Shown piece after piece: positions 3,760-62,411 of a DNA stretch of 64,000 nt. Both the position numbers and the translations under genes were made by a program. This DNA is from Octopus vulgaris (taxonomy: Eukaryota). Each line of letters begins with the position of its first letter. Positions within the stretch are counted from its first letter, which is position 1. The stretch covers positions 3,968,001 to 4,032,000 of the forward strand of contig OX597834.1 of the NCBI GenBank assembly GCA_951406725.2. Direction: 5' to 3'. The notes under the pieces were generated by a model, which ran no database searches, was not told where the DNA came from, and saw only the letters and a program-made list of their open reading frames with translations.

Positions 3760-3990
3760 GAACGTGACAGTAGGGGGTTACACCACCACTGTTTAGCCCG
3801 AGGAAGCATCGACGCCTCCTGATGGCTTTGACACATTTTTCCTGTGTCCTTATATATTTACGAAGGGGAGACAAACACCCCCAGCAGCCAGGCCTGCATC
3901 TAGAGACACGCATGTTTCAGGGTCTTTGTCCATCATCGGTCTAGAGTAGCAGGCGCCTGTCAGCCGTGGATATCTGTCCCGATTCGCAAA
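3760..3990 (-). mobile_element. short non-coding element with a hammerhead motif, related to the 41343-41651 element
   Basis: Shares the block order TTTAGCCC.AGGAA.GCATC / GACAC / TGTGTCC.TA / AAGG..AGA / hammerhead with the 41.5 kb element. Confidence 0.55.
3899..3945 (-). ncRNA. type I hammerhead ribozyme motif (U4C core variant, decayed stem II)
   Basis: Minus strand reads TCTAGA-CCGATGA-TGGACAAAGACCCT-GAAA-CA-TGCG-TG-TC-TCTAGA: 6-bp stem I, stem III and a GUC site. Confidence 0.65.
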
Positions 3991-5264
3991 GGTATATATC
4001 TAATTTCAGTGAAGTTTATTCACTGATTACCAAAATCAGAAATATTAGATGGTAACAAAATGTCTTCATTATGGGATGTGTAAATTAATTGAACAGGGAA
4101 TCGTTTGGCAATATACATAATACACAGTACTAAAACAGAAACAAACAACATCAATGAACCTAAAATACATCAACAAAACTGACATTAAGAAACCCAATTT
4201 TATAAACAACTATTCATTTGTCAGCCTTTATAAAAAGAGATATGGCTGGGTTGAAATTTATATGGTTCTTGTGTGAAGTAAATTGCCTTGAATTCAAATT
4301 TACCTGGTTGATTGCAGATATGGCTTGATCATAGGAAGAAGGGAAGCTTCAAATCAAAAATATAGTATGACCTTTGTTTGAAACAAAAATTAAAGAATTT
4401 TGTTTTCAAGGAAGCAATGGTCCGAACAAAAAGAACTGAACTGCTAGCAACTTGTATGCACTGAGCTAAATATCTTTTGTATAAGTATCAGTCTCTCAGA
4501 CTTTCCACTTGGTTTGGCAATAAAAATATTGATTTCAAAATATTTCAAAAACTTGTATTTAAAATATTGCTTACAACAATGCAGTTTCATAAGGAGTTCT
4601 CAGAATGACCTCACTTGCATGGCATTTAAGACATTTGGTGTATTCCCACAAAAGACAATATTCCCACAAAAGATATAGAAATGAAATGAAATGCTAGAGC
4701 TTGAAGCAGCTTCTTTTACAGGTATTCTTCACATGATTCCTTTGAAGGAAAAAAGAAAAGCATTTTCTTGATAACTTGTGTACATATCAAAATATAATCA
4801 AAGAGATAATTCGATTCTAACGTACAAAAGAGTATTCTACAGTTATGTATTGAGTTCGTTAATTTATCGATTTTCTGTGAATAAAAAGAAATTTACGTTT
4901 ATATGAGGAATGGATTTTAAAACAAAGTAGTTTCAAGAAGTGTGGAGGTTGACTGGTGATGTACAATGGATATGGAATAAGGGCAGGTTCTGGTTCCATA
5001 TGAACACTACAGGTGAATATGAGTGAAGTTAGAAGAGTGGAGCAATGTATGTTAGGAATATGAGGAGGTTTGACAGGCAGAGAGAGAGAGAGGGACTGGG
5101 TGCAAGAGCAGGGCCCATACATACACATTCACACACACACACACTGGTTTTTATATATACAAAGGCACTGGCGATGAAAGCTGGTGCTATGGCTACGACC
5201 CAGAAACGAAGCAGCAATTAAGTCAATGGAAGAATTCAATGTCACCACACCCACAAAAATTGAC

Positions 5265-5430
5265 ATTTCGTTCATCTTTACGTTCTGAGATCAAATTCCA
5301 CCAAAGTCGACTTTGCCTTTCATTCTTTCAAGGTCGATAAAATAACAGTTGAACACTGGGATTAATGTTATCAATTCACCCTTTCCCCTGAAATTGCTGG
5401 CCTTGTGCCAAAATTTGAAACCAATATTTA
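5265..5430 (+). mobile_element. SINE family A, diverged partial copy
   Basis: GTCGACTTTGCCTTTCATTCTTTC core as in the copy at 2462. Confidence 0.7.
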
Positions 5431-6053
5431 TTGATTATCACATAACTCTCCAATGATATGTTTTGAGTGAACAGACCATAAAAAAGTTATAAATTATTAC
5501 TTTTATGAGAAAGACTATGATTTTGAAGTTAGTTTGTTAAGTGCTACAAATGAACCTCTCAGTAAATCGGTTCTTTCGTAATTTTCTGCCGATTTAAAAA
5601 AAATCATTAAAATACATACACGAACACATATAGTCATATAAATGTATACACACACATACATACATATAGATGTGGCTAGCTAGGGGTTTGTATCGAATGC
5701 TACACAAGTAAGCAATACACAGGGGTATTATCCAATCCAAACCAACATTACATATATATATATACACACACACATACATACACATATGTATACACACAGT
5801 GAATTTGAACTAGAACTACTTGGGAAAGTAATAACCTGTCCAAATCGTGCAAGCATGAAAAGCGGTTTGTAAAACGATGATGATCTTTAGACAGACAGAC
5901 AGATATACACATGCCTATATACATGCATAGGCACGCACACACACACACACACATCCATCCACACATACATTTTCATAAAATTTATCAAAAAAATAAAAAG
6001 AACTGCTGAAATATTTTATAGACATATTTATTATTATTTTTTGTATATCGGAC

Positions 6054-6055
<2 letters not shown>

Positions 6056-6103
<48 letters not shown>
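6056..6103. repeat. (TA)n microsatellite, representative of many (also about 12625, 13665, 39230, 43460, 48820, 48960, 52755)
   Basis: Direct reading of the sequence. Confidence 0.95.
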
Positions 6104-6106
<3 letters not shown>

Positions 6107-7320
6107 TTATTTGATTTTGCAGAATATTTGACAATTCTGACATTAAAAAAAAATTTAGACTGATACATGCATTGTGGGAGGAGGCCTGGAAGCAGTAGAG
6201 GAAAGCTATAAATATTTGCATTAATCCTGTGATCCAATAAATAACTACAAAATAAAGTGGGGATGTGTGGGGGACTGAGCAACTGATGGTGGATGTGGAA
6301 ATGCATTTAGACACGTTGGAATCATTTGATTTAGTCAAGCCATATAAACTATTCTTATAACCAGAAAGTATATGACCCCAGTTAGATAACTTGTACAGAT
6401 TTTCTTAAACCAGAAAAGGGGAGAAGTAATGCCAACCATGGCAGGACCGCAACTCTGAACTGGAAGAGAAAAAATGAAATCAAGCAAAGTAATTTGTCCC
6501 AAAACTGTGGCCTTCGCTATAACCACTGCCTTTATTAACAACAATAACAACTTGTAAAATATGCTAGCACAAGGTCAGAAATTTGTAAGGGAAGGAATCT
6601 ATCACCTGAATCAACTCGGGTGAGATAAAGGAAAACAATTAATCCAGGCTGGATTTAAACACAGAATGCATCAGGACGGAATTAAATAGTTAAAGGCATA
6701 TAATCTATTTCTGTCGATCCACTGATGTTTTACTACAACAAAAATGCACTCTTATTTAGGCAAATGAAATTGTGTCACATATATGCATTTTCCAAGAGTG
6801 GTAATTGATTTCTTATATTGACAGTGACATAGCAAAGGTGCACAGTGCCGTGGAGCGAAGACCCCTTTGGCATTCCCATCATAATTAACAAGTATGATAA
6901 GTCATAGGAAATTTTGAGCCTTTTCACATTTGTACTTAAAGAATAGGTGGGACTGTTTTCACTCCTAATTCTCTTGTTACACCTTGGGTATAAAGCCTCA
7001 AGTTTGAAAGGAATTATTACGGACAGCTTTATCGACCACAGAAAGTTTTTATTTTATCAAATCTCCAACGTATCAGAAGCAACATGATAAGGAGAATGAT
7101 AATTTCTAACTTAGATTCAAGGTCAAGAAATATGGGAGAGGTGAGATGTTGATTTAAATCAAGGATTCAGGTTTACCAACGCTGGAAGGATGATACACCA
7201 AGTGAGTCTTGAGTTTTTAACTCTGAATGCATATGGACATAAAAATATTGCAGAGTAATTTGTTTGTTACTCTATTGATTTGCCAGTCCTCTGTTCCAAC
7301 AACAACAACAACAACATATA

Positions 7321-7814
7321 TAGATGTTTTCGATCTAATTTGGATTGTTTGCTTTGCAATCAATGCTCAAGCCTTGAAAAAAGAGAGTTAAACTACATCA
7401 GCCGTAAGGAAATACATGTCTATCTTATCTAACTCGTCCAGTAGAGCCCACCAATTTATATCTGAAAAGTTCGATGAAATAACTCATGAACACTGGCGAT
7501 AGCTTCTACCAAAAGATGCTCTGTTCTGAACCGGTCTGAACAAGGGGAGATAATAAACGAATGATTCTTTTTCTATTATCTCCCCTTGTTCAGACCGGAG
7601 CATCTTTTGGTAGAAGCTATCGCAGTGTTCCTGAGTTATTTCATCGAACTTTTCAGATATCAATTGGTGAGCTCTACTGGACGAGTTAGATAAGATAGAC
7701 ATGTATTCCCTTACGGCTGATGTAGTTTAACTATCTTTTTTTTTCAAGGCTTGAGCACCAATTAAAAAATTCAAATTTGATGGCAAAGAATCCAAATTAG
7801 ATCGAAAACATCTG
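7321..7814. mobile_element. ~490 bp fold-back (palindromic) element, MITE-like
   Basis: Arms 7321-~7555 and ~7573-7814 are reverse complements with few mismatches and indels; termini TA-(T)AGATG...CATCTG-TA. Confidence 0.8.
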
Positions 7815-8348
7815 TAATATAGATATATATATATATATTCACACACACAAATAGTGATACAGTACTCTCCATGAATTTTCTTTCGCAAGATCTAGGCATG
7901 ACGATAAGATGTTAAGTGTGTGTATGTGTTGTGTGTTATCACTTTTCCATGCTTGCATAGATGAGATAAAATTCACTGAGGGAGATTTTGTACGACTGGA
8001 TGCTCTTCCTGTCATCAACTTTCACCTATTTACAAACAACCTAATATTTCCCTCGACCTTTGAACATGAGCAATAAAATGGCCTTCACAGGAGATAGCAA
8101 CGAAAAACATTTGTATGACGGTGGCATATATGATAGCAAGATGAAAGAAAATAAACACACACACACAACAGGCTTTTTTAGTTTCTGTCCACCAAATCTA
8201 CTCATGATATTTTGATCAGCCCAGGACTGTACAAAAAGACACTTGCCTAAAATGCCATGCAGAAGAACTGAACTTGTAACCACAGAGTTGGAAAGCAAAC
8301 TTACTTGACCACACAGCCATGATTGCTTCCAAACACACAAACGTATAT

Positions 8349-12621: not shown

Positions 12622-12660
<39 letters not shown>

Positions 12661-12662
<2 letters not shown>

Positions 12663-13038: not shown

Positions 13039-13146
13039 AAGTATATGATTTAACTTATTAAACAAAGTTCAACAAATTCAATCATATTTTACGTAAATGG
13101 AGGAGATTAAATGTTAAAATGGATGATCATTTTTTTTATTCATGTA

Positions 13147-13221
13147 GCTGTACAATCGTTTCATACAGAAAGACAAATTCATTTTAAGAATTTGAGATGT
13201 CAAAAAGTACTCGTCAGTAGC
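13147..13221 (-). ncRNA. type I hammerhead ribozyme motif, left arm (host-transcript orientation)
   Basis: GCTA-CTGACGA-GTAC..GAC..AAATTC-TTAAAAT-GAATTT-GTC..GTAT-GAAAC-GATT-GTA-CAGC; core intact, one mismatch at the first stem I pair. Confidence 0.7.
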
Positions 13222-13428
13222 CAAAAAATAAGAAAAAAGCTAATAAAACTTTAGGATTACACAGGTATGGTGTTCTTACTCATTTTTGTAATGTGTTATT
13301 GTTCTTGGAATCATGTCTGTTTAAAACAAGTCTTGTTTTAAATAGACACGACTCCAAGAACAAAACTGAGTAAGAACATCATACTTATGTAATCCTAAAG
13401 TTTTATTAGCTTTTTTTTTCTTATTTTT

Positions 13429-13508
13429 GCTACTGATGAGTACTTTGGCTACTGACTCAGATTCTTAAAATGAATTTATTGTCTTTCTGTATGAAACGAT
13501 TGTATAGC
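13429..13508 (+). ncRNA. type I hammerhead ribozyme motif, right arm, intact core
   Basis: GCTA-CTGATGA-GTAC...GTAT-GAAAC-GATT-GTA-TAGC; stem I GCTA/TAGC, long stem II, predicted cleavage after GUA at 13504. Confidence 0.75.
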
Positions 13509-13657
13509 TACATGAATAAAAAAAAAATCATCCATATTAACATTTAATCTTCTCCAAAGTAAAGTATGAAGAAACAACGTCAGAAATCTTTTGGAAACTA
13601 CTCCAATTAAAGGAACGAATTCACATTCAGCCTTTCAAAATATATATATATTAACTC

Positions 13658-16873: not shown

Positions 16874-17584
16874 TTACCAAGAACTTTCGCCAGATATTGT
16901 AGTTAACTCCACTTTGTCTTTATTATCCAAGTTATTGTCAACTAAACTACCAATGGCAGACTCACTGCTCAGTTCCACAGATCTACCAGTTCCGTTCACG
17001 TCTACTATCTGCGGTGTCTTTGTACTGCCATTCGAATCAGCGAAACCTGAGTCGTCCATACCAACAGACTGATCAAAAGAAACGGATAATCTATTATTCT
17101 GAGATTTATCTTTGTCCACGAGGCTGTTTTCGGCTAGGTTGACCTCTGCATTCGTATCAACATCATTCTTCTGTCTGCTAATGTCCTTCGAAGATGTGCT
17201 GTCTTCAGCAAAGGGTTGATCCAAGCTCTCTTGGCTGGAAGCCAGCTTCTCTGATGAATCTGTCTTTAATAACCTGTTGCCTAGGTTTGTCTTGCTTTTA
17301 CCAAGGATATTCTGCAGAATTGGTGACTTGAATTTTGCACTGGATTCCCCACTGGAATCATCCGACCGTTTGTCCATCAACTGTTTCAAGAGTGGAGACT
17401 TGAATTTCGCAGCTGTCCGATCTTCTTCCATATTTTGCATGTCCTCTTGAGACGAAGCCTTCTTCATGTCGTTTGCAACGAGAGTTGTAGAAGCTTCCTC
17501 TTGGCGCTCATCAGGTGAAAGTTCGGTTGATGAGTTGCTGCTTCGGCTTGGGGAACTCTGAGCAGATTTTGTTGAGGATTCAAC
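16874..17584 (-). CDS. MAP7: MAP7/ensconsin-family protein, large Ser/acidic C-terminal exon
   Basis: Acceptor ttttgttttacaag|GTT, phase 0; open 236-codon frame VESSTKS...SGESSW with a duplicated AKFKSP motif; ends either at TAA 16874-16876 or at the donor TG|GTAAGT after 16878. Confidence 0.85.
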   Translation of the reverse strand, partial: VESSTKSAQSSPSRSSNSSTELSPDERQEEASTTLVANDMKKASSQEDMQNMEEDRTAAKFKSPLLKQLMDKRSDDSSGESSAKFKSPILQNILGKSKTNLGNRLLKTDSSEKLASSQESLDQPFAEDSTSSKDISRQKNDVDTNAEVNLAENSLVDKDKSQNNRLSVSFDQSVGMDDSGFADSNGSTKTPQIVDVNGTGRSVELSSESAIGSLVDNNLDNKDKVELTTISGESSW

Positions 17585-18689
17585 CTTGTAAAACAAAAAA
17601 AAAAAAAGAAATTAAATTTAAAAAGAAGCAAAAAAAATGTATTTCTCAATTATGGAACACAGTCAGGTGTTGTTGGAAAAATGTATAATCACCTGCACAT
17701 AACCTGCTATATTAATTCTGCTGATTAAAAAGCCTAATATAGAACTCACAATATCGTCATTTTGACAGTTTTTCCAGGTTGGTGTGGGTTGGAAGTGTAT
17801 TCGTTCAGTAAATCACGAATCATCTTGACTGTCTTCTGTTAAGAGCAGCATTTTTTGATCTTTCTTTACTTCTTCTAAAATTTTTTTTTATTTTATCTAG
17901 TTTTTTATTTTATCTAGTTTCAGCTCACAAGCTGTGGCCATGCTGGGGCACCGCCATTTCTGATTTTTTTTTTTTTTTTTGTCTGAAACTCCTTTGGGGT
18001 TAAGGATACATTTCCACAACTATCACTAAAAAGCATCTATTTAGCAATCAATATACCCCAGCTCTTTATCCTGCTGAATTTAATATTTTTTTTCAATTTA
18101 AATTTCATAGAACATTTCTATTTCATTACTTTGTGCTTCGTTCTTCTTGCTTTGTTCATTAACTTACAGCAGCTGATGACTTTTACGATCTTAACACCCT
18201 GCCCCACTCCTTCCCCGATCAATCTGGTCTCTTTTGATGTCACCAATTTCATTAAACAGCTGCTGCACAATCAATTCTCCTAGTCTGTTCCTTTTAGCTC
18301 ACAACCTACATTCTACAATCGTGTACACGTGTCTCTAGCCCAGCGCATTTGAAGAGTACTACTGTTTTTATTTTAGAAATAAAGGTTTCTGTTTCAAATT
18401 TATTCCGACGCTATGTACATGGCTACAGAGGTGGGAGTAAGAAGTTCACTTAGCAACCACAGTTTTGGGTTCAGCTCATTGTATGTGTGTTACTCTCATA
18501 CCACTTGACAATCAGAGCTGGTTTCTTATGTCCGCCCTGACATAATGCTTCAAGAAAAAGGGTAATAGAAAACATACCAAACGTTGATTTGATTGACTAA
18601 ACCCTTCAGAGTGATGCCCCCAACAGGGCTGCAGCCCATATGAGAATAAGGCATCTGATGATGAGTGGAGATCAAACTCATTGAAATGC

Positions 18690-19085
18690 AGTGTAAATGT
18701 AAATATGAGGCTTACTGGCTTCCGTGCCAGTGGCACTTAAAAGGCACCATTCGAGCGTGATTGTTACCAGTGTCACCTTACTGGCGCTTCTGCCCCGTGC
18801 TAGTAGGGTGCTAAGAGCACCATCCGAGCGTGATCGTTGCCAGAGCGGCTAACTGGCTTCTGTGCCAGTGGCATGTAAGAGGCACCATTCGAGCGGCCCC
18901 CATGCTGGTGGCATGTAAAAGCACCCACTACTCTCTCGGAGTGGGTGGTGTTAGGAAGGGCATCCAGCTGTAGAAACTCTGCCAGATCAAGATTGGAGCC
19001 TGGTGCAGCCATCTGGCTCGCCAGCCCTCAGTCAAACCGTCCAACCCATGCTAGCATGGAAAACGGACGTTAAACGATGATGATT
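18690..19085 (+). mobile_element. repeat family C with internal tandem units
   Basis: Repeated CTGGCTTC.GTGCCAGTGGCA..TAA.AGGCACCATTCGAGCG blocks and a (TGA)n tail. Confidence 0.8.
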
Positions 19086-19196
19086 GTTCTTCATATCCAA
19101 TAAACCATAAAAATACATAGACTAGTGTTCTCAACACAGATACACATTTTTTGAGGTCGGTGAGTGTAAGAGAGATAGATAAAGCAGAAAACTCAC

Positions 19197-19256
19197 TTTT
19201 ACTGTATCAACTACATTTGGTTCGGTTTTCACCCGTTTCATTATCATCTCAAGGCG
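19197..19256 (-). CDS. MAP7: MAP7-family exon RLEMIMKRVKTEPNVVDTVK (end of MAP7 domain)
   Basis: ttctttgtctccag| ... |gtgagt, 60 nt, phase 0-0; completes the RKKRLExIMKR signature; not in the ORF track. Confidence 0.92.
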
Positions 19257-19559
19257 CTGGAGACAAAGAACGAAAGACAAACACGTGAATAAACAGACAA
19301 CAAATCCAATTATTTCCTTAAATTATTTAATTTTCAAGAACTGATTTACTTCAGTTGTTTTTTTTCTTTATTAAATGGGGTTTTGTAATATCAGACTTTA
19401 AAGAAAAAGAGAGATGAACCTAATTCCTGAATCGACAAAACTGCACAGACAACAACTTAAGCATTGAGCCAAACATCAGACCGTTCTTCCTCAGTTCATT
19501 CCACAGTTTCAGATATTTGCTGACAGAACATTATTAATTTCTTTGGATTCCACAGTTTT

Positions 19560-22480
19560 ACATGGTTAGACAAGAATGGAATATCTATTTCGTACTCATA
19601 GCAAAATATGTATGCACAATACAGGAGGCAAAGAGAGGGGAGATGGTTAGAAAAAGGAGAAAATTGAGAAATTGTTTAAAAAAACGGGAAAAGAATTGCA
19701 CTACTCGTGACCTTTGCAAACTCTACCAAGTCACAAATTTGTACGATTGAAGCAGATGATGTTCAGTTTGGAAATGTGAAGGTCGGAGTCTGCCAGAAAA
19801 ATTTGGAAGGGGTTAGGGTTTTATCAAGAGCGGCAGTTTTGAGAAGGAAAGACTGCAAGAGTAATTAGTGAGACACAGTAGCATGTTGAAAGGAAAGAGA
19901 TATGGCACGAAGGGCCTGAGAAAAGAGTGTGAAGTTAACTGGTTTTGAGCTTGTAATAGAAGTGAAAGAGAGAAACAGAGGATATTGTATTAATAATAAT
20001 AATAATAATAATTGTGTACAGTGCTCAGGTGCACTACAACTCATCTAAAGTGTATATATAATCAGGTGAAGTTTCGGCGGATTTCGGAAAGCATGAGGGC
20101 CTTAAAAGATGCAGTGTCATGGCAGTCAACAACTGACGCAGGCAGTTTATTCCATGCTTCAGCAACTCTGAGCGTGAAAAAATGTTTCCAAAAGTCATGG
20201 GAGCTGTATTGTTTTCTGACTTTGTAGGCATGTCCACGTGTGTTAGACACATGGAGATCAAAAAGGTGTTCAGTGTTGTTGTTGGTGAGGTGGTTGATAA
20301 CTTTGTGGGTGTTTACCAAGTCCGTCGCCAAACGCCGGAGCTTCAGTGAATGGCTGCATGCTAATGATTGTAGTATATCTATTGATTAAGGAGTCTTTGT
20401 TAGTCAGTCTTCTTTAAAAGCAATTTGGGATGCTTGTGTTTGTAGAAGCAGCACCGTGTATGCCAGCGGTAGTTCGATCTGAGCTGTAATTTACATGTGT
20501 TTCATAGAGGACTAACAAATAGTCAGAGCGAAAGACTTTGCTGATGTCAAAGTACAATAATATTGCTTTTGCACAAGATAGATCTGGCTTTCCGAAAGCT
20601 ATATTGATGATTACTAAAGTGGGAGAAAGAGAGATCCAAGGTAACTGAAGATGTGATTGTTAACAAACTTTTCCCCAATATCAACTGAATTGTTGGAAGT
20701 GAGTGCAATAAGTTGGTAGTAAACAGAGTCAAAAGGCTTCCTTCTGAGTTGAAAGTAATGTGAGACACTACAACATGTTTTCTTACAGTGGGAGAGATCC
20801 AGCAGATAGAATAAGAGTCTGACAGTGAGAAGCTAGCTTTGATGTGGACTGTTAGAGAGTGATGAAGGGGTTGATATAAGGACCAGTTACCTTGCAGAGT
20901 TAGACTGATTGGAAGTGGTTTCCATGCGGTAGCTATGTCTATCAGTGATGAGACTATAGGTGTAAAAGAGGAGAGTGTGAGAACATAGTTGGCAGTCATC
21001 TTCACTGAGAAATGAATCAAAAGAAGATTATGGAAAGTGGTAGAATCCCTCTTGGCAAGGAACCAGAAGGCTCTGCTGCAATTTGGGAAGCAAGAGTTTC
21101 AAACCATGTGATACATGAAGGCACCGTTTGCTCGTTTGATGACAGCCTTACAGGCATTGTGCTGCAGGTGAAAAACCTCCAGGTGTTACAGGTAATGTCA
21201 TTGCTCATATAGATGCAGCACAGAGTTCAGAGGCTTTACTTGTCTGCATTGGTCACAGTCTAATATTTATGCTATAACTGATGCAAAAGGCTAACTGTAT
21301 CATCATGACTGTGGATATGCGTGAAGGATCTCCAGATCTGGCCAAGTGGATGCCAGCAACACCAATGGCACAGAGCCATGGTGGCTGCCAAACACTGTTT
21401 CCCAGCTTCTGCCGCATGTACAGGTATATCTAGATCTGAAACAGCTTGGCTGTCAGAATGATGCTGACAGGATTCTGGCCAGTTAGTGGACTTGAAATGC
21501 TAAGGAAACTAAAGAGAGGAATGCAATAGGAAGAAATGTAGTGTGAAGTTTTAATTCAGCTGCGATCAAGATGTGTGCAGGGATGGTGACGGGCAGGTTT
21601 GGGAAATGAAAAAGATCGACGATACTTTGAGAGCAAATGTATATGTCAGGGATATGGGTAGCTTGGGATACAAACTGGTGTGGGTAATTAAGAATGGGAA
21701 ATGATGCAACGTTTACATCCACGATGTTGGTATGGGAGGTGTGCATATTGAAGTCAGCAAGGATGATAACTTCAGAGAGAGAATCAATAAGAGAGATATT
21801 TTCAATGCAGGATATGAGATAGTCATATTGTTGGAGTATTTTGGAGTTTGTAGATACAGCAGAGGACTTAATGAAGAGAACCAGTGTAACCGAAATCACT
21901 TTTTGCTAAAATTCAGGGAAGAGACTTGAATAAAGGGAAGAGTGAATTCTACGTGGGTCCAGGTGCCACCTTTTGGAGAAAAGATAATACACAGAATATA
22001 GCTTCAATAGTAAAAATGGGTTAGAATTAGAGGTTCCAGAGAAGAATGCATGATTTACCTTTTAGCAAGAGGTGGTTGGGGAAGATTCACATACGTTTGT
22101 GTAGCGAATACAGCCATCGTCCATGTATTTATTGCCATTTAATATAATTGTTTTATGTTTATAGAAGGGAGTGGAAAGAAGAAACCCTATTTTGTAAATT
22201 GCAGTTAAATATTAGATCAGTTTTTGGAAAAAGCTCACTGGAAGTCAGTGACAGTAGGTGGATCTCTCAAAATCTTGTGCTTGCTTTAGTACCAGTCATG
22301 AACTGGGGTAGCTACCCACAAGGCTATTTCTACCTCCTCTGGTGATGAACCTCTGCAGGAAAACTTATTCCATCTGTACCCTGTGACAAACAGAGACACA
22401 ACACAAGAGAAAGTCATTGGTGACTTGATGTTCACGAAAACAGCCATTAGTCCTCAAACCAGTGGTTGAATGTTTACAAC
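19560..22480 (-). mobile_element. old degenerate CR1/Crack-like LINE
   Basis: APE-like ILADFNMH and ATHIPD in ORF 21483-21899; fragmentary downstream frames with many stops. Confidence 0.55.
19988..20345 (-). mobile_element. younger CR1-like LINE 3' end nested in the older LINE
   Basis: TRGHAYKV...FFTLRVAEAWNKLPASVV C-terminal motif and (TTA)n tail; second copy at 30615. Confidence 0.85.
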
Positions 22481-23054
22481 AGAATAAACTCTGCTAAAGA
22501 TACCCACAGACACTTATTCTGAGTCAATCAATTGCCGAGTTTAATATGACCACCTGGCCCTCAAGAGACTTTTGGACACGTCTGTTAGAAGCGAATCGTG
22601 TCCAGTTTTAGGATAACTCATGAGTTATGGCTGCTCTTCCCTTTTCCCCGACAATGAAGTCATGGGAGCTACTCTTTCTTTTTATGATTAAACTAATCAA
22701 AAGAATGGGTCATGAAGGATGAAGGGCAAGGTCAGATCTGTTGGATTAATAAAATGAGTTTCTTATTTAGATACAAGTCCGGAGGGATTACGGTGAGGGG
22801 AAAGAGATGATCTTCTCATTGGTATTTGCGGCAGAAGTTAAGTAACTAGACTTGAACGAGAATTAAAACCATTACTATTCTCTACAGAACAAAATCCTGA
22901 AATGAGTTTGGAACAGTTCCTAGAAACATAATGATGATATTTAACACCAGGTTGATAGTCTGGAGATATTAAGCCAGAACCAGATGACAATTCAAAATGT
23001 AGATATGAAACAACAAGTCTTTGGAAAATAAAAAAACACAACAAGAGGCCATAC

Positions 23055-23159
23055 CTTCTTTCTGGCTAGCCTTTCTTCTTCTTCTTTCTTGGCTCTTTCT
23101 ACACGCTCCTTTTCAAGGCGTTCAGCCTCTTCCTTGGCTTTCCTCTCAGCTTCTTCTTT
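23055..23159 (-). CDS. MAP7: MAP7-domain exon KEEAERKAKEEAERLEKERVERAKKEEEERLARKK
   Basis: attttgtag| ... |gtatgg, 105 nt, phase 0-0; not in the ORF track. Confidence 0.93.
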
Positions 23160-23264
23160 CTACAAAATAATATATATAACTTTTAGTAGACACAAACCAG
23201 AGATAGGAATTGAAGAGATGTGGAGAGACATTGGTCAGCAGAATACTGTTTATTTATGACTCCT

Positions 23265-23410
23265 ATGAATTTAAGAGTCAATATACTGGAGTCACTACCA
23301 GAACTAGAGAAGTTTCAGGGGTTGAAGCAAGGTCTAGAATCAAAGGGCCTTAGAGTCACTCTAGCAAAAACCAAAGTTTTAGTAAGTGGGAAGGAAGACA
23401 AATCTCTTCA
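23265..23410 (+). mobile_element. RTE-like reverse transcriptase fragment
   Basis: KFQGLKQGLESKGLRVTLAKTKVLVS resembles the RT segment GLKVNxxKTKVM. Confidence 0.65.
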
Positions 23411-23759
23411 GTAAAACCATTTTTTAATGCCCTGTTAGTGATGGAAGTTTCCCTTATCATCATTTGAGGATAATTTAGAAATTCCTACTGAGTATTTATA
23501 TTCTTTCTTTTTCTTTTTTTCTTTTACTTGTTTAAGTCATTTGACTGTGCCCTTGTAACTTTGTAATAAATGTAATTCCTAAACTGAATCCACATAACAC
23601 AGCACTTGACAAGACCAGTCTTTTGAATTATGGTTGCTATTTTCTGGTGGGATTTGGCTTACCCCAACTTTATTTACATCATATAGGTTGACACATATTT
23701 TGGGAGTAAAAAGTAAAACATTAAAAAAAAGTGAGTAAAAAGTATCACAAAAGAATATC

Positions 23760-24450
23760 AAATTCCTAAAGGAAGGTGACAAGGCTCCCAAGGCCAAAGC
23801 AATGACAGGGGACCCATTTTCTGTTTTGCCTTCAGCCCCAGACTGGGAGATGCAAGTGGACCTGAAGGGTAGACTTGTCTTCCCACCAGAGGAGATAGTA
23901 GTAAGATCACTCCAACCAGACATGCTTCTGCTCTCCATAAGTATGGAAACAATAATCATTGTCAAATTCACAGAACTCTCAGAGGACAGACTCGTTATTT
24001 CCTACCAGGTAAAGAAACCAGATATCAGGTCTTAGCTCTCTGTCAAGGGATGGCATGCAGCCTCGTATCCCATGGAAGTCAGCTGCTGTGACTTTTCAGC
24101 TAGATCAGCCGGTGGCACGTAAAAAGCACCAACCGATCGTGGCCGTTGTCAGCCTTGCCTGGCACCTGTGCCAGTGGCACGTAAAAAGCACCCACTACAC
24201 TCATGGAGTGGTTGGCGTTAGGAAGGGCATCCAGCTGTAGAAACACTGCCAGATCAGGCTGTAGCCTGGTGCAGCCTCCTGGCTTCCCAGATCCCCGGCC
24301 AAACCGTCCAACGATGATGATGATGGTGATCAGCATGCTATTTCCTGCAGAAGATAGGTCTGAAATACAAACAACTGAAGGAAGCCATATAAGGAGATAG
24401 GCAAAGCAGCTGAATCCAGCTCAAGATTAACTATGATTGATAAGACCAGA
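23760..24450 (+). mobile_element. HERO-like non-LTR retrotransposon 3' fragment (restriction-like endonuclease), split by a family C repeat
   Basis: DWEMQVDLKGRLVFPPEEIVVRSLQPDMLL then GWHAASYPMEVSC match HERO RLE motifs DW.L.VDL...FP..I....RPD and GW....P.EVG. Confidence 0.7.
24106..24325 (+). mobile_element. repeat family C
   Basis: Same core and (TGA)n tail as the copy at 12661. Confidence 0.85.
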
Positions 24451-24814
24451 CGTGGAATCTTTTTGCAGGTAAAGACTGGTTCAATCCCTTGCTGTCCCAC
24501 TCAGGCAAAGCATACAGGCTAAGGGGTAAAATTCTTCTGACCCTGAGATATCTGATGCTATGGAAGGGTTTCCAGCATTGCAATGGACTTAGAAGAGCTG
24601 GCAAAACCTCTAAGCAGCCCTTGCAGCTTCTGCATTGGGCAAAGGGTCTCTGAGGTTTATATTTCATCTCACTTTGCTCAACATGTCCTGTAGTGGTGGT
24701 ATGACTGTGAAGCAGGTTTCTTAATTTCCCCAGGTAAGCCTACATCCACAGGTGGGATTTGCTTTAACTCCTACAAAATGTCAATCCAAAAGAATGCAAG
24801 CTCGTTGATATATA

Positions 24815-25016
24815 CTCTTTTCTCTTCTACATGTTTCAGTCATTTGACTGCGGCCATGCTGGAGCACCGCCTTTAGTCGAGCAAATCAACCCCAGGACTT
24901 ATTCTTCGTAAGCCCAGTACTTATTCTATCAGTATCTTTTGCCGAACCGCTAAGTGACAGGGACGTAAACACACCAATAAAGGGGGACAAACACAGACAC
25001 ACAAACATACACACAC

Positions 25017-25047
<31 letters not shown>

Positions 25048-25210
25048 CGACATGCTTCTTTCAGTTTCCGTCTACTAAATCCACTCACAAGGCTTTGGTC
25101 GGCTCGGGGCTATAGCAGAAGACATTTGCCCAAGATGCCACGCAGTGGGACTGAACCCGGAACCATGTGGTTGGTTAGCAAGCTACTTACCACACAGCCA
25201 CTCCTGCGCT
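24815..25210 (-). mobile_element. SINE family B, near full length, about 60 nt from a splice donor
   Basis: Near identical to 8349-8764. Confidence 0.85.
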
Positions 25211-25272
25211 TATATATATATATATATATACATACATATATTATACGATATGTGTAGAAATTCAATATTTAC

Positions 25273-25453
25273 CTGCTTTCTTTCTAATTCCAGCCGATCA
25301 GCTTCTTCCTTCTTGCGTTGCTCTTCAGCTTCGATGGCCTTACGAAGCCTTTCTTCCTCAGCCAACCTACCTTCGGCTGCAAGGCGTATGGATTCTTCTT
25401 CCATACGACGCTGCTCCTCCTCCTCTAAACGAATTCTCTCCTCTTCTTGACGC
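25273..25453 (-). CDS. MAP7: MAP7-domain coiled-coil exon RQEEERIRLEEEEQRR...ELERKQ
   Basis: ttttgtcccag|G ... CAG|gtaaat, 181 nt, phase 2-0, joins both neighbours in frame. Confidence 0.93.
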
Positions 25454-25931
25454 CTGGGACAAAATAACAATCGTAAAACCTTTATGCCATACAAATTATA
25501 CTCATACATATTCCTATTGTTCTTTCAATATGCCAAAGAAAAATTTTAGTGACAATTGAATTAAAACTATACTTTAAGCTATAAAACAGGTACATGGAGA
25601 CAACAGTTTCCAACTAAAAGCAAAATAAATGCAGTGAAGATTGATTAAAAGTTTGAGGGTCACAGATCTGAAACCATGGAACAATTTACCAGCTGGAATA
25701 ATTTGTGTGTGCATGCTATCATTAGTGTCATGCTGTATGCTTGGTAAATACCTTTTAACGATCAAATACTTCTTACTGTAAAAAAGGTACCACAGAACTG
25801 AGACAGTAATGAGAAACTTCTTGAATATCATTTCTTGATCTTCCTCATTAAGTTTCTAATAAATCTAAATGACTATAGGATACAACTGACTTAATTACAC
25901 AACTATGGAGAGAAGCAAATTCATAACACAC

Positions 25932-26140
25932 CTGAGTTCCTCTTGTCTTTGCCGCTCTAACTCTGCTTCCCTTTCAGCCTTTTCTCTTGCCTGGCGCCGT
26001 TTCTCAGCAAGTTTAATCTTATACTCCTCTTCAGTAATATCTTGGGTTGAGCGTGTCATTTGGTCTTCAGGAGCTGATGGAGTTGGAGTACCTTCACGAT
26101 TAGGGGACTCACGTGGCCCTTTGTCTTTGGTAGATTTGGG
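25932..26140 (-). CDS. MAP7: MAP7-domain start exon PKSTKDK...EEYKIKLAEKRRQAREKAEREAELERQRQEELR
   Basis: catttcacttcag| ... AG|gtgtgt, 209 nt, phase 0-2; LAEKRRQARE is the conserved start of the MAP7 domain. Confidence 0.93.
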
Positions 26141-26699
26141 CTGAAGTGAAATGGGAAAGTTGATGAAAGGGTCATGAAGGGAATGGTTGATATATAACAT
26201 GTGAACACAGTGAGAAATTGCTGAGTCAATGAATGGATGCAAACCAAGGAAGATTTGGAAAAGACAGACTCAAGGATATTTAGCTTCACAGATCAAATTA
26301 TACAAGAACAGAAAATAGGAAATTGTACTCCGCAATAAACTTAGCTCATACCAGTATGAAAAATGGCAATGATGATAATGAAAAGGGAAGTGAGATAGAT
26401 TTAAGAATAAAGTATCTAATTAAAATTAGGAACCACTCAACTTCAACCTATATATTACAACTAATTAATTAAAGGTACTGGATCACTGACCTACCTATCA
26501 AACCTCTTATGTGACTTGACAGAAGGAAAAAAAAAAACCTTCAAATATTACAAAAATTAAAATAGCTCTAACATTAAAGAGAATGATGTAGATGAGAAGG
26601 AAGATGCAAATCATTACAAAACAAGAAAGCATTTAATAATACCCTACAGTAAAGGTGGGAAAGGAAACCACTTTAGGGTAAGGATAGTCTTTCTGGTCA

Positions 26700-27100
26700 T
26701 CTATCAGTTCTGACTGTAGAACATGGAGTTGAGATCACAGCTGTAATCATGCGTTTATGAACATCATAAGCTTAATTATTTTGCCAGACACCCTGACAAC
26801 CTCGATTACAGTATCTATTCCTTTCTCTCCCAACAGTATATCTACTCCATCCACTTCTGAGCTATTAATCACCAATATGAACTCCTGTTTCTTGCAAGTG
26901 GGGAGTCCAACCAAGGATCTAACCATCTCACCTCACGTACACAAGGTATATTGAGTCATCTCTCTAACATTTTCTCATCTACTCTTCATTAGGCCAACAT
27001 CAATGGTGGTAGCCCTAAAGTCCTGTGCTTCAAAGGAAAAGAGTTGCTAGGCACACACCAAGTGAACTTGACGACATGCCCACCACTAACAAAACAAGTC
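26700..27100 (-). mobile_element. degenerate RTE-like LINE fragment
   Basis: Decayed RT C-terminal peptide hints on the minus strand; no intact frame. Confidence 0.35.
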
Positions 27101-28493: not shown

Positions 28494-28553
28494 CTTTCTT
28501 GGAGTAGGAGTTGTAGTTCCTGAATTAGGGGCTGAGGATTTCTTCTCAGTTGA
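28494..28553 (-). CDS. MAP7: MAP7-family exon STEKKSSAPNSGTTTPTPRK
   Basis: ttttcag| ... AAG|gtacag, 60 nt, phase 0-0; Ser/Thr/Pro/Lys composition like its neighbours. Confidence 0.85.
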
Positions 28554-28611
28554 CTGAAAAATCAATCAGAAAAATGAATTAAAATACAGAATACATATAT
28601 TTTCCACTTTG

Positions 28612-29720: not shown

Positions 29721-29816
29721 TCTAAACATCAACGATACCTCCACTGCTACTATAATTATTATCGTCAGTCTCCATCATCATCATCACTACTGTCCCATCA
29801 CCGAATTTATTCACCT

Positions 29817-38932: not shown

Positions 38933-38968
38933 CCTTCCGTAGAAGAACATAAGCTCGAAATGTTAAGG
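38933..38968 (+). ncRNA. decayed minimal hammerhead-like motif in a short repeat (about 38905-39050)
   Basis: CCTT-CCGTAGA-A-GAAC-ATAA-GCTC-GAAATGTT-AAGG: stem I CCTT/AAGG retained, core mutated. Confidence 0.4.
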
Positions 38969-39094
38969 AATTCTTCCATTTTTCCTGAGCACAAAACTAA
39001 TACACCCTGTCTGTTGTTCTTTCATTCATCTTTGTGTTGTTTTTTATTTTATTTTTGAACCACACACATATTTTATGTATATATATATATATAT

Positions 39095-41125: not shown

Positions 41126-41342
41126 AGTAATAACTTTAATAACTTATTCTGTTGAGAGATTATGAAGAGCTACAAAAATGGAGAGAGAGTAAAAATAAGG
41201 TAGAACAACTCACTAACAATAACTTCTACAGTTTAGGTGTGTATTTCTAGTTTATATGTAAATAGGGTAGATTTGATATGATGGTAGGCAGTGATTTGTT
41301 ATAATTTATTTTAAATCTCTGAGTGAGGTATATACAGTAACA

Positions 41343-41651
41343 GTGGCAGTCCTATATAGGATGATGTTACTGTTGTTTTAGCCCCAGGAATTGTTTTTCT
41401 CTCTATGAGATCAGCAACTGTGTCGCTTATAGAATATATAGCATTTGCGAGTGGAGAAAGCTTTCATCACTAGCTTGTGATTATCTCATACTGAGGATGG
41501 GTAACCACCCAGAAACCTATGGGCTTGAGATGGGAGCGATGATCTCCTTTGCAAATTGCTATACGGACACAAAGTGTGTGTCGATAGCCAGCTGGAAGAG
41601 ATGCTTTCCTGGGGCTAAAACAACAGTAAGTGCCCTTTATAGGGCTGCCAC
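41343..41651. mobile_element. imperfect fold-back element with a central hammerhead motif
   Basis: Arms 41343-41390 and 41606-41651 are inverted, with weaker inverted homology continuing inward to about 41457/41543. Confidence 0.75.
41483..41531 (+). ncRNA. type I hammerhead motif with a mutated cleavage triplet
   Basis: ATCTCATA-CTGAGGA-TGGGT-AACC-ACCCA-GAAA-CC-TAT-GG-GC-TTGAGAT: stems I-III present, GUC reads GGC. Confidence 0.65.
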
Positions 41652-42059
41652 ATTCTGTTGGCATCTAAACATTACTGATTTGTTATTTAGGGTAAAATTC
41701 TTCAAGCAGAAGAGATTAAGGGTCTTTTTTTTTCCCCCTAACAAAAGACACTGGACCATGGCTGGTAATACACACAAGGAAAACTAAGCGATTGCCTAGG
41801 GTACTGAAATTTAGGGGCCCCACATAAGTTCAAAACAATTAAAATAGAAGTTCTTAAACTACAAAAAAATCACAGTACTAAAGAGAGCAGGGATGGTTAC
41901 CCTTGGAACAGAGTAGGATGGGGGGGGGGACAGGCTTGAGGAGGGAAAGGGAGGAGGAGGAGAGGGTTGTGTAGTATCTTGAACTACAGTTCTTGTTTGT
42001 AAGGTTTTTCAATTGCATTTTTCAGCTGGTGTAAAGATGATGATGGCAGAATTTCTAGA

Positions 42060-51477: not shown

Positions 51478-52149
51478 TTTATTTACAGAGTATTTACTAA
51501 GAACAATGAAAAGGAAGACAGAGGAAGAATAAAAGTTGGACAAGTAGGGTATTCGCTTACTGCTTTAATGGAAATAAAAAGCATGTTTTGGACATCGGTC
51601 CTGCATCAAAAGAGAGAGATTACAGGGAGGGGAAAAGAGTCAGAGAAGAATGTTGTTCCATGGGAGAGTGGGGGGATAAGAGAGAAAGGGGCAGGAATGT
51701 GAATGTATCTGCCATTGTCCTCACCTTTTGTCACTCATAATATTTAGCCCTATATGCCTTTGACCCCTATTACTGTGCATCTCTCTCCCAACACTACACA
51801 ACATTCCCCCTATTTCTTAACTGTCTAAGCAACCAGCTCTCCAACCCCAAACATTTTATGCATTACCACCCATCACCTCCTCCTCCTCCTCCATGACCCA
51901 CTCTTATCTTCCTACCATTCCTCCAAATTTGGATTCACCATTATCCATGCTTCCATCCATGTTCACCATTTTCTGCATTTCTGCCAACTGTTACTCTCCT
52001 TTCACACTCTTGTGAACATACCCCACTCACCAGCCATTCTAAATTCTCAGTTCCTATTCTCTCTTTATCCCTCTTCTTGGATTTCGAGAGAATGCCCTGA
52101 AACCTCTTCTTTATAATCGCTTCTCCCCTTTCACCTGGGGTAGCAGCCA

Positions 52150-52700
52150 TGCATCTCCTCTGCATGAACATGTAGTATCTCAAGGATACTACATCTGATG
52201 TTGAGGAAGCCATTTCAATAGTCCCAGAGTTTCCAAATGAAGGGGTCCAGAGAGGTGGGGTTTTTTCCTATCCTTACACCTGAAAGAGTTCATGTGTTGT
52301 GCTATCTTCCCTTAAAGTCATTGGTTGTCATGCCTGTGTAGTTTCTTGTGATGTGTAGCGTCTTGTGATGCTATCAGATGGTGTGAGGGTGGCCTTATAA
52401 ACTACAACCTTTGAGGGGGGCAAGTTCCCTCAAGTGGGCAGTTGGTAGAATTCCAGCACTTACAGCTTGAGGCATAGAGTGGGAGCTGTTATAGGTGTGC
52501 ATTTGTGTCTAATGCAGTATGTGATGTTTGAAGTGATATTATATAAGAGCAGATAACCTTGACATTATCAGTTGAAGAGTTTATAATATCTATGGCTCAT
52601 GAAATGCTTTGTAATTAACAGCAGGAAGCTCCCGGTCATATTATTGGAAATGTTTACATTGTATAGGGGGGATTGAACCAGATTATCTTCTTTCTATTTC
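52150..52700 (-). mobile_element. Penelope-like element remnant: linker plus GIY-YIG endonuclease, frameshifted
   Basis: Successive motifs RKKIIWFNPPY, ITKHF, CKC..STNCPLEGTC, VVYKATL, YTGMTTNDFKGR, HMNSFR, FIWKL. Confidence 0.8.
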
Positions 52701-52744
52701 TGTTTGGGTTCAGGATGGTGGGAAAGTCTTATGTATGTATGTAT

Positions 52745-59808: not shown

Positions 59809-60027
59809 CAGTGGTTTTCAACCAGGGTTCCACGGAACTTTAGGGTTCCGCCAGTACAGTCCAGGGGTTCCGCAAGAAGTTACAAAACTGCTAAAATCAG
59901 CAGTTATTTTTAATACTCCTGTGCAGATATGTGTGCATAAGACTATTAAATTATTGCACAGGGGTTCCTCGAGCCAGTGGAGTGTTTCCTTGGGGTTCCA
60001 CTCCAGCAAAAAGTTTGAAAAGCACTG
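59809..60027. mobile_element. hAT-type MITE
   Basis: TIRs CAGTGGTTTTCAA / TTGAAAAGCACTG; repeated internal GGGTTCC motifs. Confidence 0.75.
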
Positions 60028-61828
60028 CTCTAATGAGTCACAAGGCATATAATGAAAAACATCTAGGGCACTAGAATCCTAACCACAAGAACCAAACAAA
60101 TGAATAACACTTGGTAAACCAATATGTATTCCAGAGGGATGTGGAAGCCCCAAAAGAAATCTGAAGATAAATGGCAATATTCCTTTCTTTGTGATGTCTT
60201 GTCGAAATAACCCCATGAGGAAGACTGAGAAGGATTGAGAAAAGTAAGGGAAAGGATTCATTAAAATACAACACTCCAAATGACTGTAAATGCCCCCCAT
60301 GTAACCATAGTAATTTGGGTAAGTGTGCATGTGTGTATAAAATAAAAAATACTAAATAATGTGATTCAAGGGCTGAAAGATCAAAAACATCCAAAGTATA
60401 ATGTGCAGCTGAAATCTCCATCCTGTTACCCAAAGATTAAGTGCCTGGTGTTTTCCCCCCAACAACCTTGCCCCTACTGTGTGCTCACCTCATTTCATGG
60501 TCCCTATTGTATGTGTTTATCACCACCAGCAACAGAAAGTCTTCATTTCCATTAGACCCCTGCTTCCACACAAACTCCCTGCTAATACTGATTAAATAGA
60601 CTTGCAATCTGTGGGTCCTCTGCTTCTCAGAAACAAACCAAAACACCCAGAAGAAACCTGAACTTATTCCCCCAAACGCATTTATGCACACACGAAAACA
60701 ACGATGAAAGAAGCTACTTTGATGATATTCCTAATCTAAGTTTCCGTTTCATTTCTGAGTAGTGAAACAACCAAGCAGAAGCATGATCCATGTGCTCTTC
60801 CACTGCAGCACTGTGTACCGTCAGAGAGAATTATAAAGAAGTCATCCAAGTGAATGGAGTCACGATGGTCATTAGGGACACAGTAAAGTCGTTATTGCAA
60901 CTAATTTTACAGAGAGAAAAAGATGTTACGAAACACGAATGATTTAATTTATATTAACATTTTCGAGTTTATGCATAAGGGTGGGAGAGAAGAAATGGCT
61001 GGAATGGATAACAAACAGGTTCTATGAAGTGCGAAATTAATGAAACACAGAAGGGGATTAGATTTGAAGATGACCCACCATATCTACATTGGCTACACTT
61101 CATCAGAAAAAGCACGGTGAGGGGACAGTAGGGTCAGGTGTTTTTGTTTTTCACTACTTACATGGAAAGATGGATTGGACAGGAATAGGAATATTATGAA
61201 GCAGAGAAAAAGTACAGGCACTGCTGTGTGGTTTAGAAGTTTGCTTCACAACCAACTGGTTGGTTGCTAGGCACAATCCTACTCATAGCCTTGAGTTGGC
61301 CAGTGCCCTTGTGAGTGGCATTTGGGAGGTGGAAACTGGGTAGCTATCCACTGTGTGTGTGTACTTTGATTTTAACAAAGAGGAGGGAAAATACTCAATA
61401 TCATAGTAGAGAGCAATAGTTTAAGGCTAATACTGTTTGAAGAATGACAACATACTGGGGAAATAATGACCACTAGTTCGAATCAGAAGGAGAGAGTGAG
61501 AGAGAGAGTGTGTGTGTGTGTGTGTGTATGTAAGAGACAGGCAGACTGTGTGTGTGAAAGAGACAAGCAGACACTGTGTGTGTGTGTCTTTTAATGGTGA
61601 ATACTGGAAAGAGATTTAAACACTGGTGAATCAACCAATAAACAGACGCTTTCAAACAAATTGCCAAGAGGTATTTGTTCTGCTTTAGTTGTACAGATAA
61701 TTTTTCTTGCTACAATAGCCATTGTAAATGAAGTGAAATAGCAACTGGCCTCCTGGAAACCTGTAACCAATGGAGATATTCACATTATTTACATTTGACG
61801 GATATTTGTCCTCATCTTGTTTGTTGTT

Positions 61829-61872
61829 AACATGTTTCAGCTGATATACCCTCCAGCCTTCATCAGGTTTCC
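61829..61872 (-). ncRNA. minimal hammerhead motif, left arm
   Basis: CTGATGA-A-GGCTG-GAGGGTATAT-CAGCT-GAAACATGTT; stem II intact, small deletion at stem III/I relative to the right arm. Confidence 0.6.
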
Positions 61873-62115
61873 TGGGGAAATTTCGAACCTGGGTTCTAAT
61901 CTCTAAGGTAATTTTCAATGTTATTATTAGTATTATTATTATTATTATTATTATTCAGGTCATTGCTTGGAATCGAACTTGGAATCTTAGGGTTAGTAGC
62001 CCATACTCTTAACCCCAAGATTCTGAGTTCGATTCCAGGCAGTGACCTGAACAATAGCAACAACAACATCGAAAAATACCTTAGGAATGAGAATCCAGGT
62101 TCGAAATTTCTGCAA

Positions 62116-62144
62116 GACACCTGATGAAGCCGAAACGTTGTGTT
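62116..62144 (+). ncRNA. minimal hammerhead motif, right arm (stem II deleted)
   Basis: GACAC-CTGATGA-AGCC-GAAACGTT-GTGTT: stem I GACAC/GTGTT, palindromic AACGTT stem III. Confidence 0.6.
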
Positions 62145-62411
62145 AACAACAAACAAGATGAGGAGAAATATCCGTCAATTGTAAATAATGTACATAATTC
62201 CTCATCTCTTAAATATAGAACTGAATGATGTTTACAAAAATGGACATAAAAAGAAGAAGGCAAAGTCAAGAGAAAGAAAGAAAGAAAAAAAAGAGAGGAG
62301 GGTGTGTGTGTGTGTGTGAAAGAGAGAGAAATGCATGGAAAATGAAGAAATTTTAGATACTAATAGAATAAATACTATTCTGTTGACAAATAAAGCTAAA
62401 CAGAAAAATAC

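Follow-up and report, generated by a model that had tools for sequence, protein, structure and literature searches.

Three fold-backs associated with hammerhead ribozyme motifs lie at 13, 41, and 62 kb of a 64,000-nucleotide (nt) stretch of the Octopus vulgaris genome (the window, meaning this whole stretch: assembly GCA_951406725.2, contig OX597834.1, forward-strand positions 3,968,001 to 4,032,000, or G000:C21:3968001-4032000 in our numbering). We consider it highly probable that each was laid down in a separate, one-time insertion of the reverse transcriptase-endonuclease (RT-EN) type known from Penelope-like elements (PLEs), from differing RNAs of three unrelated hammerhead-motif families, and that none was moved as a hairpin. 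An earlier note, made from the letters of the window, had seen in them one common architecture, namely non-coding, non-autonomous units of 150-230 nt, each duplicated as a perfect hairpin with outward-facing tails, and had attributed them to PLE mobilization. The attribution is supported and the 3′ ends do face outward. The common architecture and the unit size do not: one family (F1) is the end of a coding PLE of more than 5 kb, two (F2 and F5) are tandem-forming, non-coding units of 356 and 364 nt, and one (F3) is a non-coding, tRNA-headed monomer of ~310 nt.

Fold-backs in the window were located by gapped self-comparison, and the 2.8-Gb assembly (227 contigs) was searched with one arm of each fold-back and with the element at 3.76 kb. 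The families are named F1 (13 kb), F2 (41 kb), F3 (62 kb), F4 (7.5 kb), and F5 (3.9 kb). The first look returned 303, 1648, 2768, 162, and 2046 candidates for F1 to F5, respectively, and the best 40 per family were scored. Duplicate stretches (L014, L017, L023, L038, L057, L131, and L139) were excluded from the counts and the window F2 copy was listed apart; the fold-back counts cover 27 F1, 27 F2, 30 F3, and 23 F5 loci. The three hammerhead fold-backs of the window consist of the following parts.

13039-13333, minus strand: left F1 arm, a coding PLE truncated to its 3′ end, in the short form; the hammerhead core lies at 13217
13329-13649, plus strand: right F1 arm, internally deleted and ending in the long 3′ form; its hammerhead, at 13433, is complete and has a long helix II
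41303-41390, minus strand: F2 inverted piece, 88 nt of monomer end and tail, without a hammerhead
41391-41681, plus strand: F2 forward copy, belonging to the 356-nt hammerhead unit that forms tandems; the core lies at 41491 and the cleavage site has been lost by deletion
61777-62014, minus strand: left F3 arm, with a tRNA-derived head (5′ 17 nt missing), (AAT)n, a minimal hammerhead, and the short 3′ end
62010-62223, plus strand: right F3 arm, with the 3′ half of the tRNA-derived head, spacer, hammerhead, and the long 3′ end with tail

Inverted repeats are thus present at all three places, but they are not perfect hairpins: arm identity is 81% for F1 (13082-13569) and 72-73% for F3 (61782-62191). 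At 41 kb, the only inverted match is a 48-nt pair (41343-41390/41606-41651), and the F2 insertion is one forward copy with an 88-nt inverted piece and a single broken hammerhead, rather than a duplicated unit with a hammerhead in each arm. Searching the genome with each arm and aligning the copies, a check that the earlier note had proposed, revealed a type I hammerhead motif in the F1, F2, F3, and F5 families. In the window itself, most hammerheads are damaged. In the left F1 arm, a mismatch in stem I adjoins the core, an 18-nt deletion in F2 removes the cleavage site and the 3′ side of stem I, the left F3 arm (core at 61866) has lost 3 nt at the cleavage site, and stem II is deleted from the right F3 arm (core at 62121). 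The right F1 arm carries the sole motif that is complete with 4-bp stems; a scanner requiring 4-bp stems I and II found this one motif, compared with 0.03 on average for 60 resampled windows. A relaxed scan of the window returned the two right arms and two chance matches, a strict scan returned no match, and none of seven single window motifs folded with a significant z-score. The window copies are decayed and likely inert. As 81% of bases in the F1 and F3 fold-backs are predicted to pair, it is plausible that these pairs would form long double-stranded RNA inside a host transcript; the masking of the ribozymes by arm pairing that the note had foreseen is predicted as well, but matters little where most motifs are broken.

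The evidence for PLE-type insertion comes from the anatomy of the genomic copies. An inverted piece adjoins the 5′ end in 10/27 F1, 14/27 F2, 21/30 F3, and 12/23 F5 loci (37-70%), and its joint falls at many different positions along the unit, differing by locus, so that the hairpins cannot be called fixed. Among three ordinary short interspersed nuclear element (SINE) families in 1 Mb of fetched sequence, such a piece adjoined only 1/48, 12/122, and 6/96 copies (19/266 pooled), and the excess in F3 over the pooled SINEs has a p value of 1e-14. Each of the four hammerhead families has two alternative 3′ ends, and the longer one, bearing a tail, is found on exactly one side in 15 of 18 F3 and 9 of 10 F5 fold-backs with both ends readable. 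The optional tail measures ~30 nt in F3, 60 nt (approximately) in F2 and F5, and ~140 nt in F1, compared with the 30-40 bp given for PLEs in the available descriptions. Non-microsatellite duplications of 8-14 nt surround the whole insertion, inverted piece included, at 11/30 F3, 6/23 F5, and 3/27 F2 loci, where shuffled flanks lead one to expect 0.2-0.3. A TA run lies at the insertion end in 12/23 F5, 9/27 F2, and 2/30 F3 loci.

The same anatomy is seen in an intact coding element. With the PLE protein query P0001, we found a young PLE family (L233-L262, e.g., G000:C4:132441570-132446036) with a 727-amino-acid open reading frame (ORF) in a 3356-bp unit. Its copies are mostly 98-100% alike, with at least 87 near-identical ORF matches, and it has probably been active recently. 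It has a hammerhead near its 3′ end, targets TA runs, forms tandems, ends at two points 67 nt apart, and shows inverted pieces with differing joints in 19 of the 30 fetched stretches, some of which overlap one another. Because this intact PLE shows the same inversion, joints, and tail, PLE insertion yields the fold-back architecture generically in this genome. The RWK, DKT, and CxCx5C motifs and the C-terminal endonuclease of the ORF, together with the hammerhead and TA-run targets, are shared with the Hydra clade as described in PMC8557442, and the family fits this clade by motifs, without a tree. Pfam and PDB sequence searches did not recognize these PLE proteins.

One alternative, contained in the earlier note, is that the palindromes are themselves mobile, a master copy with both arms being copied as hairpin RNA. 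Five F3 loci (L066, L067, L078, L079, and L083) do share a near-identical head-to-head centre, with left arms that differ in length, and joints are common to two F5 loci (position 235) and to two F2 loci (312). The shared centre speaks against independent insertions; we read it as a fold-back at the natural 5′ end, while a minor palindromic master could also produce it. However, the majority of joints occur only once, and an inverted arm is missing from 30-63% of copies. Within an F3 locus, the two arms resemble each other no more than they resemble other loci (0.083 vs 0.080, 17 loci), and their differences (12 loci) are mostly at recurrent CpG sites, often in both directions. In F5, the other family covered by this comparison, shared variants are slightly more numerous than expected (11 vs 4.7 in 9 loci, mostly from one locus). 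Promoter boxes at the centre of an F3 palindrome would also fire outward and give single-arm RNA. A mobile palindrome is thus very unlikely, and the separate insertion of each fold-back remains our preferred reading.

A second alternative, that the hammerhead fold-backs are miniature inverted-repeat transposable elements (MITEs) moved by a DNA transposase, is suggested by their look of long inverted repeats and by the presence of a true MITE in the same window.

7319-7816, no strand polarity: F4, a fold-back MITE whose 36-nt centre is fixed and whose ends are flanked by TA; it has subterminal repeats but no hammerhead

F4 serves as a control. Both arms are present in 32 of 39 distinct places and one arm is missing in seven (three left, four right); the 36-nt centre is constant and the subterminal repeats are 21 nt long. 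F4 is an ordinary MITE in which arm loss is random. In contrast to its fixed centre and ends, F1, F2, F3, and F5 show variable joints, 5′ truncation, tandems, and variable-length duplications, which makes a transposase origin extremely improbable, as the earlier note had also argued. Such head-to-head pairs are ordinary by-products of PLEs that can pass for MITEs, and F4 shows the distinction. The ~160 first-look F4 candidates include several near chromosome ends, and 90% of F4 bases are predicted to be paired. The earlier note had missed this fourth fold-back (7.3-7.8 kb), as well as the tRNA-derived head of F3.

F1 derives from a coding PLE with a long 3′ untranslated part and represents its truncated 3′ end. 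Its copies share at least 2 kb of upstream sequence, over which their starts are scattered. At C10, a broken RT-EN ORF in the same sense is followed by ~3 kb of AT-rich sequence ending in F1, at C12 and C24 the same ORF adjoins F1 sequence in inverted orientation, and C1 has an endonuclease piece upstream of F1; the assignment rests on these ORF and endonuclease pieces. We had taken F1 for a short unit, an interpretation ruled out by walking upstream into the shared sequence and the PLE ORF. The F1 hammerhead has a helix II of ~50 nt, and its core positions are kept in 27-31 of 31 copies. This long helix and the ~3-kb 3′ untranslated part set F1 apart from PLEs in the available descriptions. 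No tandem copies were found among 30 loci each of F1 and F3. At L222 (G000:C12:46685500-46692500), the ORF portion of an F1-family insertion is inverted relative to the untranslated portion downstream of it, which looks more like twin priming than like the usual PLE inversion. A second F1-type family is indicated by L258:4190-4341, a relative of the F1 end (71% over 167 nt) whose hammerhead likewise has the long helix II.

F2 and F5 are units of another kind. Their monomers (356 and 364 nt) have no ORF and a GC content under 45%, and the monomer end runs into its own start, giving partial tandems of up to three monomers (in L124). The two are 72% alike over 79 nt, and both have a hammerhead with a short palindromic helix III. 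The core positions of F2 are kept in 22-24 of 24 copies, and one pair of its helix II shows a compensatory change (of 24 copies, 11 have G-C and 7 have A-U). From sequence, both fit the metazoan non-LTR (long terminal repeat) retrozymes (Cervera and de la Pena 2020, PMC7229834), which in the available text of that study are likewise non-coding, tandem-forming, and equipped with a type I hammerhead of short palindromic helix III; those of mussels measure 350-390 bp there. Two differences are that F5 has C at core position 4 and that F2 and F5 are known here only as sequence. F5 is the youngest of the non-coding families, at ~97% identity. The canonical core may be dispensable for F5 spread, because the youngest family is the one with C at position 4. 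F5 sequence occurs in contigs from runs presumed to be RNA, from which strand, ends, and circles are not readable, and no RNA record is listed as carrying F5. A further hammerhead family with a palindromic helix III, F6 (L264-L287 and L167:2130-2240), lies outside the window and is unrelated to F1-F5 by BLAST.

F3 is of more consequence than the fold-backs themselves. The ~310-nt monomer consists of a tRNA-derived head, an (AAT)n spacer of variable length, and ~180 nt that end in the hammerhead and tail. The head has an A box at position 9 and a B box at 54, both absent from the other four families. Against 40 tRNA genes of the same genome (a sample of eight amino-acid types), it matches tRNA-Arg best, with a score of 65.5 compared with 35.5 +/- 4.5 (maximum 51) in 300 shuffles and 41.5-45 for the best window of the other families; tRNA-Arg is a best match, and the parent tRNA is not settled by it. 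Head and tail are joined in 28 of 30 loci (one lacks the head and one is rearranged), a proportion favored by our query, which covered half of the tRNA-like head. In about 20 of the 30 loci, the 5′ starts agree to within 6 nt on a single site that immediately precedes the A box, and no shared sequence was found further upstream except the inverted arms of F3 itself. The 3′ end falls at one of two fixed points ~30 nt apart, without poly(A) or a simple repeat, and core positions are kept in 41-47 of 47 copies. The sense strand has no run of four T, which is compatible, if weakly, with RNA polymerase III (Pol III) as the transcribing enzyme. Copy number is on the order of 10^4 (roughly 2.5 x 10^4 from 7 hits in 0.77 Mb), and the family matches none of the three abundant SINE families of the window. 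Most full-length copies, e.g., L062, L064, and L083, have a short self-complementary leader before the head, which may seed the fold-back at the 5′ end. Our preferred reading, held with moderate confidence, is that F3 is a Pol III SINE with a PLE partner, in which a tRNA-derived promoter became joined to the final ~180 nt of the terminal repeat of a PLE.

It might instead be the 5′-truncated pseudo-LTR end of a coding PLE that contains an old tRNA-derived piece. F1 likewise looked short until it was walked upstream, the partner search covered the best 40 of 2768 candidates, and Pol III transcription is predicted from the head. Unlike F1, whose starts are scattered over 2 kb, F3 stops sharply upstream of the A box in ~20/30 loci, with nothing shared beyond it except its own inverted arms, which renders this explanation unlikely. 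We regard as quite unlikely, too, that F3 is an ordinary tRNA SINE dependent on a long interspersed nuclear element (LINE), with a captured PLE fragment and the hammerhead as passenger. This would agree with the tRNA head, the ~310-nt length, the target duplications of 8-13 bp, the high copy number, and the failure to find a PLE partner, but not with an inverted piece in 70% of loci, compared with 2-10% for ordinary SINEs, nor with two alternative ends ~30 nt apart, one per side, in place of a poly(A) or simple-repeat end.

Several observations weigh against a PLE-dependent, Pol III-transcribed F3 and against the hammerhead-based, PLE-mobilized character of the non-coding families in general. 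Regarding the head, only 3 of 7 unselected F3 hits contain head sequence, and the exact A and B box pattern survives in 8/30 loci only. ARAGORN at its normal threshold does not call the head a tRNA; on the family majority sequences, it called nothing down to a threshold of 80% and noise at 70%, and on the loci at 85%, 5 of its 19 calls fell over the F3 head, in 5/30 loci. Rfam models at relaxed E-values recognized neither a tRNA nor a hammerhead in the window or in 14 family loci. Regarding the ribozymes, the F3 motif has no helix III and has U at the cleavage site, and in 25 of 26 F5 copies (L116-L140) core position 4 is C rather than U, which leaves the activity of both uncertain. The stem covariation that the earlier note had asked to see is confined to the single F2 pair.

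Regarding a partner, the tails of F2, F3, and F5 did not match the young PLE, whose terminal repeat is unlike theirs, and no coding partner was found for these families among the one young family and 32 endonuclease loci sampled, all from the Hydra-like clade. No PLE ORF was found in F3 or F5 loci; F2 loci gave two hits, neither of them linked to F2. The short frame of the F3 tail returned nothing when used as a protein query, a weak test. At L167 (1960-2130), an F3-like hammerhead and tail (84% over 43 nt) directly follow a PLE ORF that lacks its end; this is possibly an old relative of the F3 parent, but a second copy of the arrangement was not found. At L143, F3 is inserted within an endonuclease locus. 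The F3 partner is probably of a clade other than the Hydra-like one, because F3 rarely sits in TA runs, unlike F5 and the young Hydra-like PLE.

Insertion patterns and in vitro work on a lizard PLE suggest how the fold-backs could arise. Purified lizard PLE protein cuts and extends both strands, reverse transcription has two start sites within the RNA, which mark the limits of the tail, and hammerhead cleavage is not required, according to the available text of Frangieh et al. (2024, PMC11167929). In the octopus, the PLE enzyme would nick both target strands a few bases apart, and each nicked strand would prime one cDNA, usually one for each start site near the RNA 3′ end. The two cDNAs would be joined where each stops, giving a head-to-head pair with its 3′ ends outward and a tail on one side, and the fold-back would be made once, at integration, rather than moved as a hairpin. 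By analogy with retrozymes, the hammerhead of F2 and F5 may release monomers or circles, and the F3 RNA would be transcribed by Pol III from the head and recognized through its tail by the PLE protein. The two-ended priming model makes one tail per insertion a testable expectation; the counts behind this rule come from two non-coding families.

The fold-back, the hammerheads, and the PLE dependence of retrozymes are already published. With PLEs, as far as the accessible text of three sources goes (2021, PMC8557442; Frangieh et al. 2024, PMC11167929; Cervera and de la Pena 2014, PMC4209133), our families have in common 5′ truncation, partial tandems, an adjacent inverted 5′-truncated copy, an optional tail at one end, and a hammerhead in the terminal repeat. 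PMC4209133 reports pairs of minimal Schistosoma hammerheads on opposite strands, 100-700 bp apart, and the F3 hammerhead without helix III resembles the minimal PLE motifs described there. Retrozymes are treated as non-autonomous PLE derivatives in the available part of Li, Clavereau and Pollet (2026, bioRxiv 10.64898/2026.07.22.740005), where eight of nine tested dimers did not cleave. The published argument for PLE dependence, in the text available, rests on co-occurrence and terminal-repeat similarity, whereas ours rests on insertion anatomy.

F3 has two sets of relatives in structure. The Schistosoma retroposons Sm-alpha and Sj-alpha (PMC6765202, PMC8490949) are also short and non-coding, with a Pol III-type promoter followed by a type I hammerhead. 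Sm-alpha, as described, has an active canonical hammerhead and forms tandem repeats, whereas F3 is a monomer whose minimal motif lacks helix III, and the PLE-type inversion and tail that F3 shows are unreported for Sm-alpha in the available text of these two sources. With tRNA-derived SINEs (SINE2), F3 shares an A/B-box head, short length, lack of coding capacity, high copy number, and target duplications; it differs in having a PLE-like tail instead of a simple-repeat 3′ end. Ohshima and Okada reportedly described octopus tRNA-derived SINEs, named OK, OR1, and OR2, in 1994. OR2 is listed as a CORE SINE in the available text of PMC4758252. The literature searched contained no tRNA-headed SINE with a PLE insertion signature; Repbase, Dfam, and SINEBase were outside this comparison, and F3 may already be named elsewhere. 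The available text of a 2026 octopus repeat annotation does not mention hammerheads.

SINEs are described as partners of LINEs, and F3, if our interpretation is true, would extend Pol III hitch-hikers to a third class of retroelements. It would define a class of PLE-dependent SINEs, show a PLE protein acting in trans on an RNA of only 310 nt, confine the cis-acting signal that PLE mobilization needs to ~180 nt, and provide a minimal natural substrate for the unexplained inversion-and-tail reaction. The young intact PLE is a protein source for work on trans-mobilization.

The window contains four other features that bear on the earlier note.

3729-4050, minus strand: F5, a single 5′-truncated copy of the 364-nt tandem-forming hammerhead unit, 96% to the family majority sequence
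38925-39020, plus strand: decayed copy of an abundant repeat with a CUGUNGA core, a minimal-hammerhead-like motif; 13 related stretches
51540-51620, minus strand: weak hammerhead look-alike with three core changes, without family support
52000-52720, minus strand: PLE endonuclease region, broken and frameshifted, with a CxCx5C linker (Hydra-clade-like)

Three of these had been listed as single-copy hammerhead motifs. The one placed at 3899 belongs to the F5 hammerhead unit, with its core starting at 3939 on the minus strand, but reads CCGAUGA; the 3′ end of this copy lies within a TA run. The motif at 38933 is a decayed member of a real repeat family (13 stretches among the fetched loci, e.g., L059, L115, and L122) whose stems are intact, but whose core is CUGUNGA, with U at position 6, rather than CUGANGA. 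The motif near 51580 needs three core changes and, among 172 loci compared, matched only its own, so that it is unsupported. The PLE endonuclease remnant was correctly recognized: ~52220-52470 (minus strand) matches by tblastn, at E 3e-6, a relative that itself matches a PLE RT-EN protein at E 3e-29. This remnant belongs with PLEs, as F1 does. We first took it as Nematis-like and revised this to Hydra-clade-like; of the Hydra-clade motifs, only the CxCx5C linker is visible.

Regarding the host context, a minus-strand gene (window 16877-33527) has coding stretches at ~33.1-33.5, 25.9-26.3, 25.2-25.5, and 16.9-17.6 kb and matches MAP7 weakly (E 7e-4, short of the Pfam cut-off). Downstream of its exons, a long stretch reaching to at least 7 kb looks transcribed. 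The fold-backs at 7-14 kb may lie within a long 3′ untranslated region of this gene, because long contigs from two runs presumed to be RNA cover the unique sequence there. The contig cover thins over the fold-backs at 7.3-7.8 and 13.3-13.7 kb, which we do not use as evidence, and the contigs gave no editing signal separable from alleles. A small fold-back at 32828-33005 is formed by the 3′ end of an ordinary SINE (a 49-nt inverted and an 88-nt piece). Elsewhere in the genome, L293 (G000:C12:25267077-25270148) is a tRNA-Cys gene cluster that includes variants with other anticodons.

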